Positions 2,983 through 21,533 of a stretch of DNA of 64,000 nucleotides are shown here, one piece after another. Source of the DNA: an uncultured bacterium (GTDB lineage: Bacteria > Patescibacteriota > Minisyncoccia > Moranbacterales > UBA2206). The translations under genes and the position numbers were made by a program. The notes under the pieces are model-generated. The model saw only the letters and a program-made list of their open reading frames with translations, was not told the DNA's origin and did not search any database. The number at the start of each line of letters is the position of its first letter. Within the stretch, counting starts at the first letter, position 1. The stretch is taken from positions 773 through 64,772 of the forward strand of contig CAIMIV010000003.1 of NCBI GenBank assembly GCA_903841185.1. The letters are read 5' to 3'.

Positions 2983-3714
2983 ATGTTAAAAATACAGAAC
3001 TTATCGAAAAAATTTGGCGGAGTGATGGCGGTTGATAACTGCTCTTTTGAAATTGAAACGGGCAAGATCACAGCATTGATTGGCCCCAATGGCTCGGGCA
3101 AAACAACACTTTTCAATCTTATCTCTGGAATTGAAAAACCAGAAAAGGGAACCATCTTTTTCAATGGAGGTGATATAACAAGATGTTCAATCGAGCAAGT
3201 TTCAAATTTTGGAATTTCGCGAGTTTTTCAACAATCAAAATTATTTAAAAATCTTACCGTCAGGGAAAACCTGCTTTTAGCCATCGATAACGAGGACACA
3301 AAATTTTGGAAAAGCCTATTGGGGTCAAATAAGATCACTGAAGGAAAAGAGACAAAACTAAAAGAAGTATTGAATGAATTAGGAATTTCAAAAATTAAAG
3401 ACAAGCTGACGAGCGATTTGAGTTTTGGGCAAAAAAGATTAGTCGAATTGGCAAGGGCGCTGCTGAATTCGCATCATCTTTTGCTGCTTGATGAGCCAGT
3501 TGCCGGCGTGAATCCAAAAATCAAAAAAGATGTCGCTAAACTGCTGTTGGATTTAAAGAAGGGAGGACAAACCATATTGTTGATTGAGCATGACATGTCG
3601 TTTACAGCCAGTATCGCAGATCGCATAGTAGTTATGGATTCCGGCGGGGTAATCGCCCACGGTTCGCCTAGTGAGATAAAAAACAACAAGCAGGTCCTGG
3701 CGGCCTACTTGTGA
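2983..3714 (+). CDS. livG: Branched-chain amino acid ABC transporter ATP-binding protein (LivG-like)
   Basis: Walker A 'GPNGSGKTT', signature 'LSFGQKRLVELARAL', Walker B 'LLLLDEP'. Confidence 0.8.
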   Translation: MLKIQNLSKKFGGVMAVDNCSFEIETGKITALIGPNGSGKTTLFNLISGIEKPEKGTIFFNGGDITRCSIEQVSNFGISRVFQQSKLFKNLTVRENLLLAIDNEDTKFWKSLLGSNKITEGKETKLKEVLNELGISKIKDKLTSDLSFGQKRLVELARALLNSHHLLLLDEPVAGVNPKIKKDVAKLLLDLKKGGQTILLIEHDMSFTASIADRIVVMDSGGVIAHGSPSEIKNNKQVLAAYL

Positions 3715-11272: not shown

Positions 11273-11343
11273 TTTTCAGGGGCGCTGGCGAACCCTTGCC
11301 AAAAGAGGGAAATAGTACTACACTAGATTATGTATTTTAGAAT

Positions 11344-11389
11344 GCCGCGGTGGTCCTCCTTCGCTAAAGCTACGGATGGACAACGGGTG
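11344..11389 (+). ncRNA. Conserved tRNA-Leu-upstream element, copy 1 (unknown function)
   Basis: GCCGCGGTGGTCCTCCTTCGCTAAAGCTACGGATGGACAACGGGTG. The first 10 nt are identical to the 5' end of the tRNA-Leu 57 nt downstream. Homologous to copies at 21286 and 13175. Confidence 0.4.
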
Positions 11390-11446
11390 TTTTTGAAAAC
11401 TAATATTGTACAATAGAAAGGGCATTACGAAATTTTAATGCAGTAT

Positions 11447-11530
11447 GCCGCGGTGGTGAAATTGGTATACACGCCAGTCTTAGGAACTGGTAGGCTTACC
11501 CCTGTGGGAGTTCGAGTCTCCCCCGCGGCA
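11447..11530 (+). tRNA. tRNA-Leu (anticodon TAG)
   Basis: Cloverleaf with acceptor GCCGCGG/CCGCGGC, anticodon loop CTTAGGA, long variable arm, T-loop TTCGAGT. Confidence 0.85.
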
Positions 11531-11608
11531 CTTCGATTCATTCGCTGAAAGCGAATTCACTCAGTGTAAACACATTTAATGTTCAATGCTGAGGTATAGT
11601 ATAATAAT

Positions 11609-13840: not shown

Positions 13841-14503
13841 ATGAAAATAAAAGAGGAAAAAAATAAAGCATTTGATCTCCGGAGGGAGGGCAAGAGCTAC
13901 AGGCAAATAGCAGAGCTTTTGGATATAAGTAAAAGTACGTTATCTGGTTGGTTTAGGGATGTTGATTGGTCTCAAGATATCAAAAAACAGTTAATTGAAA
14001 AGTCAAAAGGGGCTAGTCGAAAAAGATTGCTTCAGCTAAATGATCTGAAAAAGAAAAGATGGAGCGAATGTTATGTAAGAGCAGAAAAAGAGGCAATTAC
14101 TGAATTTGAAAATTTAAAAAAAGACAAATTGTTTATAGCGGGCATGGCATTATATTGGGGAGAGGGAGATAAAATATGGAAGAATGGCATTATTAGAATA
14201 TCCAATACAGATGAAAAGATGTTGCGAGTGTTTAATGAATTTTTACAAAAAATTTGCAAGGTGGAGAGAGAAAAAATTAGAGCGGGAATTTTACTGTATC
14301 CAGACTTGGATTCGGAGGAGCGCTTGAAATTTTGGAGTGAAAGTATTAGAATATCTAAGGAGAGGTTTTTTAAATCGACTGTGATACAGGGAAGGCATAA
14401 AACTAAAAAAACAGGCAGCGGAGTGTGTATTGTTTCAGTAGGTGATAAATATTTGAAAAAGAAGTTATTGACTTGGCTAGATTTGTTCATTGGAGAATTT
14501 TAA
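13841..14503 (+). CDS. HTH-domain protein with LAGLIDADG-like core (possible free-standing homing-endonuclease-like gene)
   Basis: N-terminal 'GKSYRQIAELLDISKSTLSGW' HTH; central 'LFIAGMALYWGEGDK' resembles a LAGLIDADG motif. Sits between the tRNA-Phe/Val and tRNA-Gly genes. Confidence 0.4.
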   Translation: MKIKEEKNKAFDLRREGKSYRQIAELLDISKSTLSGWFRDVDWSQDIKKQLIEKSKGASRKRLLQLNDLKKKRWSECYVRAEKEAITEFENLKKDKLFIAGMALYWGEGDKIWKNGIIRISNTDEKMLRVFNEFLQKICKVEREKIRAGILLYPDLDSEERLKFWSESIRISKERFFKSTVIQGRHKTKKTGSGVCIVSVGDKYLKKKLLTWLDLFIGEF

Positions 14504-14506
14504 CAA

Positions 14507-14578
14507 GCGGGTATAGTATAATGGTTATTACATCAGGTTGCCAATCTGGATACGGGGGTTCGATTCCCCCTACCCGCT
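14507..14578 (+). tRNA. tRNA-Gly (anticodon GCC)
   Basis: Acceptor GCGGGTA/TACCCGC, anticodon loop TTGCCAA, T-arm GGGGG-TTCGATT-CCCCC. Confidence 0.85.
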
Positions 14579-14585
14579 CAAAGTT

Positions 14586-14616
14586 AAAAAGTTCTAGGTT
14601 TAGCCTAGAACTTTTT
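14586..14616 (+). terminator. Rho-independent terminator after tRNA-Gly(GCC)
   Basis: AAAAAGTTCTAGG-tttag-CCTAGAACTTTTT. Confidence 0.7.
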
Positions 14617-14625
14617 GATTTGCTA

Positions 14626-14667
14626 GCGGGATGGGGAATCGAACGGGTAGGAATGAGACAATCCCGC
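14626..14667 (-). pseudogene. Decayed antisense tRNA-like remnant
   Basis: Minus strand reads GCGGGAT...CCCG-TTCGATT-CCCC-ATCCCGC: paired 7-nt ends and a T-loop but a non-pairing T-stem. The same 20-nt core GGGATGGGGAATCGAACGGG recurs at 46641. Confidence 0.4.
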
Positions 14668-14750
14668 CCAAACGGGATTAGTCGAATGTCGATGAATGTG
14701 AATGAATGAATATTCAGCGCTACCCAGGGCAAGGATCCTCAGCGACGACG

Positions 14751-14770
14751 GAATTCCCCCTACCCGCTCA
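14751..14770 (+). repeat. Direct repeat of the tRNA-Gly 3' end (partial copy R2)
   Basis: GAATTCCCCCTACCCGCTCA equals the last 19 nt of tRNA-Gly(GCC) plus CA. Confidence 0.6.
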
Positions 14771-14876: not shown

Positions 14877-15476
14877 TTGTTTATGAATATAATAAAAGAA
14901 GATTTTCTACGAAAAATTGGCGTCATACCAAGATATACTGAGATTAGATTATTTTTGATGTCGTTAACTTTTTTGCTGGTTTTCGCAACAAACTCAACAA
15001 TTCGAAATAAATATTTGACTGATATTGTTAATGAAGATGCGGGGCTTGTTCTCTTGGTTATTTTTCTTGGTATATGGTTATCGATTTATAACGCTTTCTC
15101 ACCTAAGAAGATTACAGAATTTTCAAAGATATTTTTATTGATTTATGCGATTGTTATTAATGTAATTATTAGTGCGGAGGCTTATAATTATATTTCAAAG
15201 AATGAGCACGGATTATATATCATTTTTCCAATTCTAAATGTTGTGAATGCCTTTGTATTATGTATGCTTTTTAAAAGGAATATAATGACTACTAATTCAA
15301 TTATTGAAAAACAAACAAAATATTCAGAGATAATAGTCGGTTCTATATTAGTTTCTGCGATTTTTTTTGTAAGTCAATATATTTTAGGTAATTATTGGGC
15401 GGTCACTTTTTCAATCTGCTTAGCCTACGCCTCTAATTTAAATGAGTTGATTAGTGATATTTTTAGCAAAAAATAA
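14877..15476 (+). CDS. Hypothetical polytopic membrane protein
   Basis: About 5 hydrophobic helices and no motif. Lies inside the segment bracketed by tRNA-Gly 3'-end repeats. Confidence 0.4.
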   Translation: MFMNIIKEDFLRKIGVIPRYTEIRLFLMSLTFLLVFATNSTIRNKYLTDIVNEDAGLVLLVIFLGIWLSIYNAFSPKKITEFSKIFLLIYAIVINVIISAEAYNYISKNEHGLYIIFPILNVVNAFVLCMLFKRNIMTTNSIIEKQTKYSEIIVGSILVSAIFFVSQYILGNYWAVTFSICLAYASNLNELISDIFSKK

Positions 15477-15544
15477 TTGGTCATGATAATGATTCAATAA
15501 AAAGTATGTTATAGTAAGTGTGTAAATAAATTAAAAATATATAA

Positions 15545-16162
15545 ATGGAAAATCAAATACAATTTACATCTCCGCAGCAAAGTGAGTCTAAATCAAATAA
15601 GAAATTATGGATTATTTTATTGATTTTAATTCCATTGATTTTTTTCATGGCTATCGGCACTAAGGTTTTTCTTGATTTGCGAGCCTCAAGAGAAAAAGCA
15701 AATCTTATTATGAATAAGCAAAAAAATATAACGCCCGAGAGTTTGCAAAGAGATCAGCAAGAATATATGAAGAATTATAACTCAACTGGTAAATCAGAGT
15801 TTTTTGATAAGTGTATAAAGGGATGTCAGTCGCCGGGAAGCAGTGGCTGTAATAATAATTGTCTCACAAGAGAGGCTGTAGAAAACAAGGATATGTCCGC
15901 ATGTTTTTTGATTGATAATTCTGGGGATGTTGATGGAAAAGATAGTGGTAAGGCGGGGTGTCAATCCAGCGTTGCCGCAGCTACGCTCGAATTAAATAAT
16001 TGTGAAAAAATAACCTATGGAAGCGACTCTATAAAAGAATATAATCGGTATGATTGCTATGAGAAAATTGCTAGGGCGAAAAAGGATGTATCAATTTGTG
16101 AAAAAATCTCGAAGAGCTATTTATTAGGAAATATGTACAAGAATTGCATAGCAATTAAATAG
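15545..16162 (+). CDS. Hypothetical secreted Cys-rich repeat protein
   Basis: N-terminal TM/signal, then recurring 'C(x)3-4I' units (SACFLI, NNCEKI, YDCYEKI, SICEKIS, KNCIAIK). 14 Cys. Confidence 0.4.
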   Translation: MENQIQFTSPQQSESKSNKKLWIILLILIPLIFFMAIGTKVFLDLRASREKANLIMNKQKNITPESLQRDQQEYMKNYNSTGKSEFFDKCIKGCQSPGSSGCNNNCLTREAVENKDMSACFLIDNSGDVDGKDSGKAGCQSSVAAATLELNNCEKITYGSDSIKEYNRYDCYEKIARAKKDVSICEKISKSYLLGNMYKNCIAIK

Positions 16163-16209
16163 GTTGAATTAACTACATTTTTCTTTAAGTCAAGCTTAAG
16201 CTACGGTTT

Positions 16210-16227
16210 CCCGCTCAAAGTTAAAAA
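16210..16227 (+). repeat. Direct repeat of tRNA-Gly 3' end plus downstream (copy R3)
   Basis: CCCGCTCAAAGTTAAAAA is identical to 14573..14590. A terminator hairpin follows. Confidence 0.6.
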
Positions 16228-16256
16228 AACAAAGCTCTTCCGAGCTTTGTTTTTTT
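16222..16256 (+). terminator. Rho-independent terminator
   Basis: ACAAAGCTC-ttcc-GAGCTTTGT followed by TTTTTTT. Confidence 0.7.
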
Positions 16257-16460
16257 GTTGTGTCTAAGTGTGCCTGTGGATAAGTTGATAATGGGCTTTA
16301 GATAAAGCATGTTGATAAGGCGGGGAAAATGAGGTATGATGGAGAAACCCTCAATTGGAGTAAAATACAAAAAATGAGGATTAATTAAAATAAATAATCT
16401 CAAAAATGCGCCTTAGTTAGGGATAAAATGACTATTGGCATTGGCGAATAAATAAAAAAT

Positions 16461-19076
16461 ATGCCCCTAAAAAAAATAAAATTGAGAAATGGCGACATCG
16501 TGGAATTTGAGCGAACTAAGATTGAAAAAGCGATTGAGGCGGCCTGCGACGCTGTGGGAGAGAACAATAAATCTTTCATAGGTAAGATGACGGATAATGT
16601 CCTGGTGGACCTGACGGTGCGTTGCAATGATAGATCGGGGGAATATATTTTGACCGTGGAGGATGTGCAAGACTGTGTGGAAAAGCAGTTGATGCGGGAG
16701 GAGCGCTATGAAATGGCCAAGGCCTTTATCCTCTATCGCAATAAACAAAGTGAGAAGAGAGAGGAGAAAAAAGAGCAGCTATTGGAACAATTTGAAAAAC
16801 ATTCCTTGCAGGTGATCAAATCTAGCGGGAAGAAAGAATTGTTTGATTTGAAAAAAATAAAAAAAGTTTTTGACATGGCGGTGGCTGGCTATGAACAATA
16901 TTGCACCTTCGAAGATTTGCTGAAAGCTTTTAAAAAAAATATTGTCGATGAAATCAAAACCTCGGATATCAATAAGTTACTGGTGAAAACTTGTATTGAT
17001 CTGGTGACGGTGGAAAATATCCATTGGCAGGAGGTAGCCGGTCGAGTGGCGCTTTTCAATATCTACAAAGAAGCACGGCGCAACCGAGAAATTCGGCATA
17101 CGGAGATTTATTCTCCCAAAGCCGTGTTGGCATTGTTTCACGAATATATCAAAAGTGGTTTATATGCTAAGGAGTTGCGCGAGACGTATAGCGATGCGGA
17201 GATTTTGCTGGCGGCCGAAAGCATTAACAAAGAGCTGGACCTGACCTATGGCTACACGACGGTATTGTCCTTACAAAAGCGGTATCTCCTGAATCCTAAT
17301 AAAATTATCAAGGAATTACCGCAGGAGATGTATTTTTTTGTCGGATTATTTATGGCTATCCCGGAGCCCCCAGAAACGCGGGTGGCTATGGCCATTGAAA
17401 TGTATTTAGCTTGTGCGGAACAGAAAATTTCCTTGGCTACGCCATCTCTCATGAATGCGCGCACCACCTTTCATCAGCTCTCTAGTTGTTTCAAGTTGAA
17501 CGTAGATGATGATTTGCGAGCCATCTATCATTCCATTGAAAACATCGCTCAAATTTCCAAATTCGGGGGCGGCGTGGGAGTGTATTTGGGGAATATTCGG
17601 GCGCGTGGGAGTGCCATTCGCGGCGTGATGGGGATGTCCGGCGGAGTGAATCCGTGGATCAAAGTCATTAATGACACCGCCATTGCAGTCAATCAACTAG
17701 GCTCGCGTCTAGGAGCCATTTCCGTGACATTGGATATTTGGCACCATGATATTTATGACTTTTTAGATTTGCAAACGGAAACCGGAGATATTCGTTCGAA
17801 AGCCTTTGATGTTTTTCCAGCCATTTCCATTCCGGATCTTTTTATGCGAAGATTGCAAAATAATGAAGAAATCACTCTGTTTGACCCGCACGAGATTCAG
17901 ACCTTCTATGGAAAATGCTTGCAAGATAGTTTCGGAGCAGATTTTGATGCATTCTATCAACTGGCGGAGCAAGACGAGCGCCTCACTATGAAGAAAAAAG
18001 TTTTCGCCAAGGAGTTATTTAAAAAATTTCTCAAGGTGGTGGTAGAGACCGGCATGCCCTATGTTTTTTTCCGCGATACCGTCAATCGCTTGAATCCCAA
18101 TCAACACGCGGGGAACATCTATTCCTCTCAGTTATGCACGGAAATTTGCCAAAACACCTCCGCTTCCAAGTTTGCGGAAGAGACGCTGGAAGATGGCAAA
18201 ATATTGATTAAGTATGAACCAGGCGACACCGTGGTATGCAACTTGGCTTCGATTAATGTGGCTAAGGTAAACGATGTGGAGACCATTGGAAAAATTATTC
18301 CCATCGCGATGCGCATCTTGGATAATGTCATTACGCTCAATTATTATCCGATTCAAGAAGCCAAACGGACAGCATTGCGTTATCGCAGCGTGGGCTTGGG
18401 CTATCTCGGCTTGGCGGAATATTTGGCGACGAAAAAAATTGCCTATGACAGTCCTGAAGCGAGGTTGGCAGCGGATGCGTTATTCTCTCGCTATGCCTAT
18501 GCGACTTATCGTGCCTCGGTAGATTTGGCTCGTGAGCGGGGAGCGTATCCACTCTATCCCGGCAGTGAATATTCCAAAGGGAAAATTTTAGGGAAAAACG
18601 CCGAGTGGTTTGCGGAAAACACCCCAGACGGCGACCTGTGGAAAAAGCTTTTTGCCGATATGAAAATTTCCGGCGTACGTTTTGGCTATACCACCGCTCC
18701 GGCACCCAATACTTCCACCGCGGGAGTAGTCGGCACCACTGCTGCATTGTTGCCGATTTATAAAAAATTCTTCGTGGAAACCAATCTTTCCGCGCCGACG
18801 GTGCGGGTAGCGCCGAAATTGAATAAGGAAAACTTCTGGTATTACAAGGAATATATCAATATGGATATGAACGAAGTGATTGATATGATGGCGGTGCTCT
18901 ATAAATGGATCGATCAATCGATTTCTTTCGAATGGATGATTGATCCGGCCAAGGTCAGTCCGGCTCAATTATATGAGTATTATATAAAGACCTGGGCGCA
19001 AGGCATCAAAACCGTCTATTATGTGCGCAGTCTTTCCGGAGAAGTGAAAGATGATTGCGTCAGCTGTAGTGGCTAA
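16461..19076 (+). CDS. nrdA: Ribonucleoside-diphosphate reductase alpha subunit (class I) with N-terminal ATP-cone
   Basis: ATP-cone 'KIKLRNGDIVEFERTKIEKAI'; RNR core 'SSCFKLN', 'NLCTEI'; C-terminal 'CVSCSG'. An R2 gene follows immediately. Confidence 0.85.
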   Translation: MPLKKIKLRNGDIVEFERTKIEKAIEAACDAVGENNKSFIGKMTDNVLVDLTVRCNDRSGEYILTVEDVQDCVEKQLMREERYEMAKAFILYRNKQSEKREEKKEQLLEQFEKHSLQVIKSSGKKELFDLKKIKKVFDMAVAGYEQYCTFEDLLKAFKKNIVDEIKTSDINKLLVKTCIDLVTVENIHWQEVAGRVALFNIYKEARRNREIRHTEIYSPKAVLALFHEYIKSGLYAKELRETYSDAEILLAAESINKELDLTYGYTTVLSLQKRYLLNPNKIIKELPQEMYFFVGLFMAIPEPPETRVAMAIEMYLACAEQKISLATPSLMNARTTFHQLSSCFKLNVDDDLRAIYHSIENIAQISKFGGGVGVYLGNIRARGSAIRGVMGMSGGVNPWIKVINDTAIAVNQLGSRLGAISVTLDIWHHDIYDFLDLQTETGDIRSKAFDVFPAISIPDLFMRRLQNNEEITLFDPHEIQTFYGKCLQDSFGADFDAFYQLAEQDERLTMKKKVFAKELFKKFLKVVVETGMPYVFFRDTVNRLNPNQHAGNIYSSQLCTEICQNTSASKFAEETLEDGKILIKYEPGDTVVCNLASINVAKVNDVETIGKIIPIAMRILDNVITLNYYPIQEAKRTALRYRSVGLGYLGLAEYLATKKIAYDSPEARLAADALFSRYAYATYRASVDLARERGAYPLYPGSEYSKGKILGKNAEWFAENTPDGDLWKKLFADMKISGVRFGYTTAPAPNTSTAGVVGTTAALLPIYKKFFVETNLSAPTVRVAPKLNKENFWYYKEYINMDMNEVIDMMAVLYKWIDQSISFEWMIDPAKVSPAQLYEYYIKTWAQGIKTVYYVRSLSGEVKDDCVSCSG

Positions 19077-19140
19077 TTCTAATTTACCAAGTAATAGACC
19101 TGTTGCGCAACTTATTACGCGACAGGTCTAATAAAAATAT

Positions 19141-20184
19141 ATGAGTGAAAAAATGAACATGAGTCCCATCTTCAATCCGGAGGGGGATGATAGCGTGGCA
19201 GCGCGACGTATCATCAAGGGCCATACTACCGGGTTATTTAATCTAAATATCACCAAATATTCTTGGGCCAAATCCCTCTATCAAGTGATGATTGGCAATT
19301 TTTGGGTGCCGGAAAAAGTTTCCGGCCTGAAGGATGACGCCCGGATGTTCCAGATGGAACTTTCGCCGGAGGAGCAACGAGCCTATAAAGGTATCTTGTC
19401 CTTTTTGATTTTTCTGGATTCCATTCAGACCGTTAATCTGCCGCATCTTTCGGATTACATCACTTCGCCGGAGGTGAATTTGATTTTGGCTATCCAAGCC
19501 TATCAAGAAGCTATTCACTCCCAGTCTTATGCCACGGTGTTGGAATCGGTGGTGGAAAGCAAGGAACGTGACGAAATTTATTATTTCTGGCGCACGGACA
19601 GCGTGCTTTTGGAACGCAATAAATATATCGGTCAAATCTATGAAAATTTTATCCAGGACAAGACGGATGAGAATTTTTTTCGCGCGATTGTAGCCAACTT
19701 TCTACTAGAGTCCATCTATTTTTATAATGGCTTCGCTTTTTTTGATACCCTGGTCGACAAAATGAAGATGTTGGCGACTGGTCGTGTGATTGCTTATATT
19801 CGGCGTGATGAGCTGACGCATGTCACCATTTTCGCCAACATTATCCGAGAGATTCATCTGGAATTCCCAGAGATTTATAACGAAGAAATTATCAAGGAGA
19901 TGATGGGCAAGGCTGTTGAACAGGAGATAGAATGGAGCACACACATTCTGGGAGAACGAATCCCGGGTATGAATGGCCAGACAACTCAGGACTATACGCA
20001 GTGGCTAGCTAATAATCGCTTAGCGATGCTGGGCATTAGTCCACTTTATCCAAGTGCTGTGACGAGTCCCTATAAACATTTAGAGCGATTACAAGATACC
20101 AATGGCGACAAGAGTAATTTTTTTGAGAGTACAGTGGTGAATTATACCCAGTCTAGTAGTATGAATGGCAGTTGGGATTTCTAA
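19141..20184 (+). CDS. nrdB: Ribonucleoside-diphosphate reductase beta subunit (class I R2)
   Basis: Di-iron ligand pattern 'FLDSIQ...EAIHSQSY...ESIYFYNGFAFF...RDELTHV'. Confidence 0.85.
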   Translation: MSEKMNMSPIFNPEGDDSVAARRIIKGHTTGLFNLNITKYSWAKSLYQVMIGNFWVPEKVSGLKDDARMFQMELSPEEQRAYKGILSFLIFLDSIQTVNLPHLSDYITSPEVNLILAIQAYQEAIHSQSYATVLESVVESKERDEIYYFWRTDSVLLERNKYIGQIYENFIQDKTDENFFRAIVANFLLESIYFYNGFAFFDTLVDKMKMLATGRVIAYIRRDELTHVTIFANIIREIHLEFPEIYNEEIIKEMMGKAVEQEIEWSTHILGERIPGMNGQTTQDYTQWLANNRLAMLGISPLYPSAVTSPYKHLERLQDTNGDKSNFFESTVVNYTQSSSMNGSWDF

Positions 20185-21186: not shown

Positions 21187-21257
21187 AAGTATGAATGGTC
21201 CGATGGCCGAGCGGTTAGGCAAGGGTCTGCAAAACCCTGTACAGCAGTTCAAATCTG
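21187..21257 (+). tRNA. tRNA-Cys (anticodon GCA)
   Basis: Acceptor GGTCCGA/TCGGACC, anticodon stem AGGGT/ACCCT with loop CTGCAAA, T-loop TTCAAAT. Confidence 0.85.
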
Positions 21258-21285
21258 CTTCGGACCTCATAGATGCATAAAATAG

Positions 21286-21330
21286 ACATAATCCTGCCCG
21301 GGTGGCCCTCCTGCGCCAAGGCTACGGATG
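21286..21330 (+). ncRNA. Conserved tRNA-Leu-upstream element, copy 2
   Basis: GCCCGGGTGGCCCTCCTGCGCCAAGGCTACGGATGGGCGAGGTTG. The first 10 nt are identical to the 5' end of tRNA-Leu(TAA) 58 nt downstream. Confidence 0.4.
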
Positions 21331-21387
21331 GGCGAGGTTGTAAATGCATTTCGAGCTAAATAGATATTAGGAGTAGTACGAAGTTTT

Positions 21388-21470
21388 AACGAAATATGCC
21401 CGGGTGGTGAAATGGTAGACACAAGGGACTTAAAATCCCTCGATCGAAAGGTCATGCGAGTTCGAGTCTC
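21388..21470 (+). tRNA. tRNA-Leu (anticodon TAA)
   Basis: Acceptor GCCCGGG/CCCGGGC, anticodon stem AGGGA/TCCCT with loop CTTAAAA, long variable arm, T-loop TTCGAGT. Confidence 0.85.
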
Positions 21471-21533
21471 GCCCCGGGCACCCCCGTAAAGTCGCTTTGC
21501 TCCCACGGGGCAAGCCGCATAAAGTAAATAAAA

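Follow-up and report, generated by a model that had tools for sequence, protein, structure and literature searches.

Two tRNA-Leu genes of a Moranbacteria genome are preceded by what is probably a small mobile element with a conserved palindromic core

Two tRNA-Leu genes of an uncultured bacterium are each preceded by a short sequence that opens with a copy of the tRNA's own 5' end, which raises the question of whether this arrangement serves the tRNA genes or was left there by something that moves. The window considered here is the whole stretch of DNA that was analyzed, 64,000 nucleotides long (GenBank assembly GCA_903841185.1, contig CAIMIV010000003.1, positions 773 to 64,772 of the forward strand). 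Homologs of its UDG gene assign it to Candidatus Moranbacteria, within the Parcubacteria/CPR, and ARAGORN finds ten tRNA genes in it. The genes around the two loci are common housekeeping genes, encoding an rluA-like protein, L19, ribonucleotide reductase, a 3D-domain protein and a family-4 UDG.

The two loci, at 11342-11457 and 21295-21407, have a common layout: a copy of the tRNA-Leu 5' end (11-13 nt), an imperfect palindrome of 27 nt with a 5-nt tail, a spacer with a shared box, and the intact tRNA gene. Their features are the following.

11296..11324, + strand: promoter-like site of locus 1, TTGCCA-17-TACACT, identified by eye, 19 nt upstream of the tRNA-derived fragment and conserved in the related contig L046.
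11342..11354, + strand: left copy of the target duplication at locus 1, ATGCCGCGGTGGT, occupying the position at which the tRNA starts in the relatives L194 and L195.
11355..11444, + strand: inserted unit of locus 1, 90 nt, with the core at 11354-11380 and its tail to 11385, the spacer, and the box TACGAAATTTTAATG (11426-11440); present in L046, absent from L194 and L195.
11445..11531, + strand: right copy of the duplication and intact tRNA-Leu(tag) (11447-11531), from ARAGORN and Rfam.
21197..21268, + strand: tRNA-Cys(gca), from ARAGORN, the ancestral neighbor; in relatives, tRNA-Leu(taa) follows 10-11 nt downstream.
21295..21305, + strand: left copy of the target duplication at locus 2, TGCCCGGGTGG, made of 1 flank nt and positions 1-10 of tRNA-Leu(taa); it is the "decamer" of the earlier note and does not occur in the tRNA-Cys/tRNA-Leu junction of relatives.
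21306..21337, + strand: core of locus 2, found by pattern match, with the 27-nt imperfect palindrome CCCTCCTGCGCCAAGGCTACGGATGGG (21306-21332) and the tail CGAGG.
21338..21396, + strand: spacer of locus 2, the remainder of the 91-nt unit, ending in the box TACGAAGTTTTAACGAAATA (21377-21396), which is similar to the box of locus 1.
21397..21483, + strand: right copy of the duplication (21397-21407) and intact tRNA-Leu(taa) (21398-21483), from ARAGORN; Rfam tRNA score 59.4 bits.

The repeats that flank each unit are exact, with 13 nt at locus 1 (11342-11354 and 11445-11457) and 11 nt at locus 2 (21295-21305 and 21397-21407), and they enclose 90 and 91 nt, respectively. Each upstream copy agrees with its own tRNA (GCCGCGG vs GCCCGGG), as an earlier note on this DNA had seen when it described an element that starts with the 5' end of the downstream tRNA; the order tRNA-Cys, element, tRNA-Leu(taa) was also given correctly there. 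Both tRNA-Leu genes are called intact by ARAGORN, and the gene of locus 1 has an Rfam tRNA score of 57.9 bits. A third tRNA-Leu gene of the window, tRNA-Leu(gag), is without the element. The 29-nt pattern TGGNCCTCCTNCGCNAANGCTACGGATGG matches the window only at 11351-11379 and 21303-21331, with 0 matches expected from 100 shuffles, and an nhmmer profile found no further diverged copies in the window.

When the two units are aligned, 65 of 99 columns are identical, mostly at both ends. In the last 24 nt before the tRNA, 18 positions agree in a fixed register, a value that none of 1000 shuffles reached, and the interiors have drifted apart to about 50% although neither pair of repeats has a mismatch. 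The similarity thus extends well beyond the decamer, so that the shared order, spacing and sequence reported earlier stand, as does the view that a discrete unit with common end sequences is something other than a random partial duplication. Judged from these alignments, the unit copied in the lineage of the window is about 90 nt long and consists of a core, a drifting interior and a conserved right-end box. No homolog of this box was found among 180 other loci. Its origin as a duplicated native tRNA leader was considered and rejected (14 of 15 comparisons were not significant, and locus 2 against L195 alone gave p = 0.007). A small peptide gene at locus 1 (MPRWSSFAKATDGQ...) was likewise discarded, as its ATG is missing in locus 2 and in L046 and the downstream frames differ.

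What these positions looked like before can be read from relatives, whose contigs were chosen by the UDG homologs they encode, a selection that is independent of the element. In L184, which belongs to the same species (UDG 99% identical), locus 2 is filled and identical to the window. In L189/L190, L191, L192 and L193 (UDG 76-78% identical), the order is 3D-domain gene, tRNA-Cys, 10-11 nt, tRNA-Leu(taa) and UDG, without the element; L189 and L190 are the same sequence, so that these five empty loci count as four distinct ones. Similarly, for locus 1, L194 and L195 have a small ORF, a promoter-like site (TTGTCT...TATACT and TTGCCA...TATGAT, respectively), the tRNA-Leu(tag) gene itself starting 18-19 nt later, and the rluA-like gene, again without the element, and no core-like sequence occurs anywhere in 20 kb of either contig. 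In-silico removal of the 90-nt unit and one repeat makes the window co-linear with L195 and L194, including the spacing from promoter to tRNA. In L046, a Parcubacteria genome whose flanking coding sequence is about 84% identical, the insertion at locus 1 is also present, and this is the only locus of all to which the spacers of the window units were matched by BLAST. Between the window and L046, 57 nt including the fragment and the core are identical; identity is 100% from the fragment through the core and for 17 nt beyond it, and the middle of the spacer has 5 changes in 30 nt. This identity of fragment and core hints at constraint, as seen in one genome pair whose second member was found via its core. 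Finally, in L016, the core stands in reverse orientation between the same two tRNA genes, tRNA-Cys and tRNA-Leu(taa).

The empty sites in relatives and the co-linearity after excision therefore establish that both loci are insertions into a tRNA gene whose 5' end was rebuilt by a duplication, the decamer being its outer copy. This does not agree with the earlier proposal of a functional tRNA-Leu module: four distinct related Moranbacteria loci keep the neighborhood and an intact tRNA-Leu without the element, and the conserved core occurs in at least 140 unrelated contexts, in either orientation and also in protein genes. The earlier note had further seen a -10-like CATAAT just 5' of the element at locus 2 and suggested that the element may be the 5' end of the primary transcript. 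This finds no support either. A promoter scan called no sigma-70 site at CATAAT, and ancestral locus 2 is a tRNA-Cys/tRNA-Leu(taa) pair, 10-11 nt apart and presumably co-transcribed. Taken with the promoter-like site that lies upstream of the element at locus 1, this pair indicates that the element is probably situated inside the precursor and not at its 5' end.

A role in cis could still be imagined, in which the sequence is a tRNA-Leu leader, possibly a domesticated insertion, whose fragment and hairpin pair with the 3' acceptor strand or bind a factor and so control processing or expression. The one architecture at two tRNA-Leu genes, the location downstream of a conserved promoter-like site, and the 57 nt identical to L046 despite about 84% coding identity would be in keeping with this, and the fragment, being the 5' end of its own tRNA, is a potential competitor for the 3' acceptor strand, with which it pairs in the centroid fold of locus 1. 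However, such pairing is an automatic result of duplication and not evidence of design, and the fragments contain flank bases that are not tRNA, as expected of a duplication of DNA. In addition, the element is absent at both genes in four or more syntenic relatives and from tRNA-Leu(gag) of the window; the core is reversed between the same tRNAs in L016, lies beside many other tRNAs on either strand, and occurs within ORFs; and the sequence has no Rfam match and folds no better than shuffles. We therefore regard a leader function as very improbable.

The likeness of the two loci could also go back to a single insertion that was later transferred between the paralogous tRNA-Leu genes by copy-choice or gene conversion, through GGTGG/TGCC microhomology, a history that would be compatible with a mobile element. 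The insertion point, the length (90 vs 91 nt) and both ends are common to the two loci, the spacer is found at no other locus, and both targets are tRNA-Leu genes with similar 5' ends. However, the homology available amounts to about 10 nt with 2 mismatches, the interiors are about 50% diverged while both repeat pairs are perfect, and the right repeat of locus 2 is of its own type, which needs a very specific switch-back point. Such a transfer is rather unlikely, although it deserves some weight.

The nature of the inserted unit becomes clearer beyond the window. A scan of a genome collection with CCTCCNNCGCNNNNGCTACGGATGG gave 62 stretches, against about 4 expected by chance (an estimate from 19 fixed bases and about 1.2e12 positions). 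The canonical core is present in 52 of the 62; about three quarters of these are labeled CPR (Saccharibacteria, Parcubacteria groups, Microgenomates, Peregrinibacteria), and the non-CPR labels are Bacteroidota, Neomarinimicrobiota, Phycisphaerae and proteobacterial MAGs. At least 120 matches came from a metagenome scan. In all, at least 142 distinct copies of the core were collected, mostly from CPR/Patescibacteria and some under other phylum labels. A scan of the viral collection IMG/VR gave one match, on which ground a phage origin of the core was rejected. In BLAST comparisons, the homology of the window units to 180 other loci is restricted to the 25-32 nt of the core. No known RNA family applies, as Rfam at its gathering score returns only tRNAs and at E<=10 gives no match that covers the element. 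The core family is not described in the literature that was searched.

Across loci, where conservation is partly built in by a search pattern that fixed 19-20 of 25 bases, the family core comprises about 32 nt, namely the 27-nt imperfect palindrome YCCTCCTNCGCYAARGCTACGGATGGR and a CAAGC-like tail, with CA(A/C)G(G/C) after position 26. The palindrome ends in YCCTCC and GGATGGR, and a GTAG occurs only internally, on the minus strand. Among the matches listed, and at sites that the search pattern did not fix, positions 0 and 26 pair in 104 of 128 copies (C:G 61, T:A 34) and positions 11 and 14 in 125 of 128 (T:A 90, C:G 34); for either pair, 0 of 2000 permutations reach that number. Pairing of the palindrome ends at position 0. 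The hairpin conserves a bulged T and two pyrimidine-pyrimidine mismatches, and pair 11:14 would close a loop of only two bases. Its stability is ordinary, with z-scores from +0.4 to -2.0, and a stable RNA or DNA hairpin or leader fold was set aside as an explanation, as energies were no better than those of shuffles save for one strand of locus 1 (z = -2). The bulged base, the conserved mismatches and the ordinary fold stability together suggest that the core is a symmetric DNA site recognized by a protein, and that it was not selected as a stable RNA hairpin.

The contexts of the core are diverse. Copies are intergenic, lie in the loops of terminator-like hairpins (L053/L105, L124/L083/L128, L037, L120), or are nested or in tandem with variant copies (L118, L106, L103, L082). 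Within long ORFs, cores occur in both orientations, and the commonest frame reads PSFAKATDG; hosts of in-frame cores confirmed by Pfam are LeuRS (at two different positions), AlaRS, MnmA, a radical-SAM MiaB-like protein and RNase J. No linked transposase, integrase or reverse transcriptase emerged from all-against-all clustering of 2053 ORFs from 62 loci, in which the most widely shared neighbor protein cluster spanned 4 loci. In six loci (L062, L075, L119, L126, L173, L174), the core forms part of a longer conserved unit, about 110 nt in length, with the structure aaaattaaaatatggttc / core / gcaagcgagccgatgtttt...gggttcttttgcggttttgagcgg, which in L062, L119 and L126 lies 84-85 nt from different reverse-strand tRNAs; in a six-locus group, the common sequence extends about 25 nt leftward and about 55 nt rightward from the core.

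Proximity to tRNA genes is a feature of the family. Among the matches listed, a tRNA lies within 200 nt of the core in 35 of 142 copies, against an estimated 2% or so by chance. In these 35 copies, the association is polar, with the tRNA on the 3' (GGATGG) side in 28 and on the 5' side in 7, and the tRNA may be on either strand. A direct repeat that abuts the 5' edge of the core (score >=10) is present in 17 of 128 copies among the matches listed, compared with 1 of 128 in the control, and about 15 of the 17 repeats correspond to the proximal 10-18 nt of the adjacent tRNA, that is, its 5' end if co-oriented or its reverse-complemented 3' end if opposed. In every duplicated case, the dead fragment adjoins the 5' edge of the core, and tRNAs on the core's other side bear none. 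Aminoacyl-tRNA synthetase genes show the same layout at their 5' coding ends, where L104 has a 34-nt repeat and L040 a diverged one of about 34 nt, seen by eye; in L009 it recurs with a diverged 26-nt copy of a tRNA-Arg. Flanking repeats across the family measure 8-34 bp, many copies have none, and the spacers from core to right repeat range from 6 to 192 nt and are unrelated between lineages. Sharing after the core is a matter of subfamilies: L070, L157 and L045 have a CACTTYGYT-like stretch, and L070 and L157 also a GCGCAAA lead-in. Units made of a tRNA-Gln end, core and spacer can be repeated in tandem, with three in L167 vs one at the same tRNA-Gln in the closely related L157. In L167, L157 and L070, the sequence after the core holds 5-6 nt complementary to the duplicated tRNA fragment.

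At some of these loci, tRNA sequence is found on both sides of the core, which leads to the idea that a whole tRNA-Leu was duplicated in tandem, decayed, and later received a core insertion, the spacer being the remains of a pseudo-tRNA. Indeed, the tRNA sequence resumes after the core, for 6-11 nt, in L050, L054, L161, L133 and L010, which is easier to reconcile with a core that interrupts an extended pseudo-tRNA than with simple duplication of the target, and in L009 a diverged 26-nt copy of a tRNA-Arg 5' end precedes the core. For the window itself, however, local alignments of the two spacers with the remaining tRNA score 12 and 16, values equaled by 272 and 148 of 300 shuffles, respectively, and the right ends of the two spacers resemble each other more than either resembles a tRNA T-arm. 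As an account of the window loci, a decayed duplicate is thus extremely improbable. Among the loci just named, L010, L133 and L161 have a conserved tRNA-Tyr-like 3' portion in which the core stands exactly between the T-stem and the acceptor strand; two of the three carry an insertion of about 100 nt in the T-loop region, and the copy of L161 adjoins an intact tRNA-Tyr.

From these observations, namely filled as opposed to empty sites, flanking repeats, homology confined to the core, the distribution of the family and its polarity, we consider it likely that each window locus is a lineage-specific insertion of 90-91 nt, a small non-coding mobile element that is presumably non-autonomous and whose left end is a member of the dispersed family of about 32 nt. 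On the other hand, the 90-nt unit has no terminal inverted repeats, and repeats of 8-34 bp differ from the fixed lengths of typical DDE transposition. On this reading, the element entered the tRNA-Leu gene after about position 10-11 and duplicated 11-13 bp, a segment that begins 1-2 nt outside the gene and ends at position 10-11. Of the two copies, the left one is a dead 5' fragment, still next to its native upstream neighbor (at locus 1 the promoter, at locus 2 tRNA-Cys), and the right one completes an intact tRNA gene. The repeats may result from staggered cleavage and fill-in, and an enzyme acting in trans would move the element. The tRNA would most likely be expressed by read-through from the old promoter at locus 1, or with tRNA-Cys at locus 2, followed by trimming by RNase P, the element traveling as a passenger within the tRNA precursor.

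Several other features of the window and of its relatives resemble small insertions at tRNA genes. The last 17 nt of tRNA-Gly(gcc), ATTCCCCCTACCCGCTC, in the region 14507-14769, recur at 14753-14769 with 173 nt between the copies. Within the 173-nt insert lie a terminator-like hairpin and, at 14604-14644, a pseudo-copy of the T-arm and acceptor of tRNA-Gly in inverted orientation, so that intact tRNA, insert and terminal fragment follow each other in a layout like that at tRNA-Leu, without the core. Directly 3' of tRNA-Leu(tag), a 77-nt stretch with the palindrome TTCGCTGAAAGCGAA (11532-11608) is absent from L046, L194 and L195, in which the rluA-like start codon comes 0-14 nt after the tRNA; this stretch is probably another small insertion. 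Directly 3' of tRNA-Leu(taa), at 21484-21525, there is a hairpin CCCCGTAAAGTCGCTTTGCTCCCACGGGGCAAGCC that is absent from L189, L192 and L193 and whose tail, GGGGCAAGC, is like the tail of the core. In L189 and L191, about 100-210 nt into the reverse-complemented intergenic region from UDG to the 3D-domain gene, the intact tRNA-Cys is preceded by an insert of about 113 nt that opens with another hairpin, GCTTGATGC...GCATTAAGC, and the insert in turn by 20 nt that repeat the tRNA-Cys 5' end, aaGGTCCGTTGGCCGAGTGG. The corresponding site of L193 is empty, and the insertion point is again after ...GTGG.

Coding sequences are also found at such positions. At 13841-14503 (+), within the tRNA cluster, an ORF of 220 aa stops 4 nt before tRNA-Gly, at a place where the relatives' sequence consists of tRNA genes alone. 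Its product has an HTH of the transposase/resolvase type (HTH_23/HTH_38) at the N-terminus and a motif, LYWGEGDK, resembling LAGLIDADG nucleases, and may be a homing-type nuclease that stands free. Positions 14877-20184, which separate tRNA-Gly from the 3D-domain gene, contain two ORFs without family match and the genes for ribonucleotide reductase alpha and beta. In L194 and L195, the interval from that tRNA cluster to the 3D-domain gene is free of called genes, and the segment may be an island beside the tRNA. In L188, a related Moranbacteria contig, a 96-aa HNH endonuclease gene (3219-3509) lies in the spacer between tRNA-Cys and tRNA-Leu(taa), the same junction as that of the element in the window.

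Integration that targets tRNA genes has a classic signature, in which direct repeats of a tRNA end surround the insert and the tRNA is regenerated. The loci could accordingly be remnants of site-specific integration of the integrase type, the repeats being att identity and the interior mostly deleted, as in cis-mobilizable elements. In addition to this signature, the tRNA flanks of the region are hot spots: the HNH gene of L188 lies between the same tRNAs, a 17-nt repeat surrounds the 173-nt insert at the 3' end of tRNA-Gly, and the ribonucleotide reductase genes adjoin that tRNA in the window and not in relatives. However, no integrase is nearby or recurrently linked, and the unit has only about 90 nt. 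The repeats differ between the two loci, each matching its own tRNA on both sides, where a shared attP would leave hybrid sites. Moreover, cores with flanking repeats occur inside protein genes too, and many copies have no repeats. Integration of this kind is an unlikely source of the two loci. The corresponding known systems, tRNA-targeted integrative elements and CIMEs, are like the window loci in that the insert sits in a tRNA gene end, is bordered by direct repeats of it, and the tRNA stays intact. They are unlike them in being kilobase-sized, in encoding or borrowing a tyrosine integrase and in usually occupying the 3' end; the unit of the window is about 90 nt long, sits at the 5' end, has repeats that match each target, and has no integrase among its neighbors (rluA-like, L19, ribonucleotide reductase, 3D-domain and UDG genes).

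A mobile element of this kind can be compared with the small repeats of bacteria. Rickettsia palindromic elements (RPE) are short palindromic selfish repeats that persist in frame in essential protein genes, in RNA genes and in intergenic regions. The core persists in the same manner, in frame within LeuRS, AlaRS, MnmA and RNase J; however, RPE have about 100-150 bp and are confined to Rickettsia, whereas the core has 27-32 nt, hardly varies among many CPR lineages and some other phyla, and comes with duplicated gene ends. Likewise, REP/REPIN sequences, which are mobilized by RAYT (IS200/IS605-like Y1 transposases), are scattered imperfect palindromes of 20-40 nt, a range that includes the 27-nt core, and share with it a bulged base and conserved mismatches that suggest protein recognition over folding stability. 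In REPs, however, one end of the palindrome is headed by GTAG or CGTC (PMC3733652), and the core has its GTAG internally and on the minus strand. REPs are also species-specific and free of target duplication, in contrast to a family that spans many lineages and has 8-34 bp repeats. They are high-copy and extragenic, with a RAYT gene in the genome; the 64-kb window has 2 copies of the core, many copies of the family lie in ORFs, and no neighbor gene recurs.

MITEs (Correia/NEMIS, RUP, Nezha) are similar in being small, non-coding and non-autonomous, in their presence or absence between relatives (here filled in the window, L184 and L046, and empty in L189-L195), and in having flanking direct repeats and conserved ends around a drifting interior. 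The element differs from them in that terminal inverted repeats are lacking, as the unit ends CCTCCTTCGC... and ...TTTTAATGCAGT, judged by eye, are not complementary; in that its duplications are not of fixed, short length (13 and 11 nt in the window, 8-34 nt in the family); and in that one end only, the core, is common across lineages. In yeast mitochondria, GC clusters are short G+C-rich palindromes that spread in a compact, A+T-rich genome, sometimes nested or in genes. The nested cores of L118, L106 and L103 recall them; nevertheless, host system and sequence are different, and tRNA-end duplication is not reported for GC clusters. Structured RNA leaders, such as the T-box or any other Rfam family, gave no covariance-model match.

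The element lacks defining features of REPs (the GTAG/CGTC head), MITEs (terminal inverted repeats and a fixed duplication) and tRNA-targeted integrative elements (the integrase), and is best read as a REP/RPE/MITE-like selfish element, hitherto undescribed, with unusual target duplications that vary from 8 to 34 bp. More tentatively, and with doubt outweighing confidence, the window and the family might be joined in a single reading: a cross-phylum, CPR-centered mobile family with a palindrome of about 32 nt, polar in its insertion, with a precise junction at the 5' edge and a variable one on the other side, where 6-192 nt are co-inserted, which makes duplications of 8-34 bp, prefers tRNA genes, in their outer 10-13 bp, and aminoacyl-tRNA synthetase genes, at their 5' ends, and regenerates the gene. 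One precise and one variable junction, together with variable duplications, are unlike ordinary DDE, Y1 or integrase reactions and would resemble target-primed or one-ended copying.

For annotation, look-alikes of tRNA 5' ends and odd PSFAKATDG-type peptide insertions in CPR genomes can be explained as footprints of one selfish element, and its recognition should keep them from being mistaken for protein motifs or regulatory leaders. The genomes of CPR bacteria are small, and mobile DNA is considered scarce in them. That very distant lineages have a 27-nt palindrome in common, with hardly any variation, implies a conserved recognizing enzyme or frequent horizontal spread. More generally, entry into essential tRNA and synthetase genes without killing them, by means of long, variable duplications that rebuild the gene end, is unlike known bacterial small repeats, and such gene-regenerating insertion could point to an unrecognized insertion mechanism.
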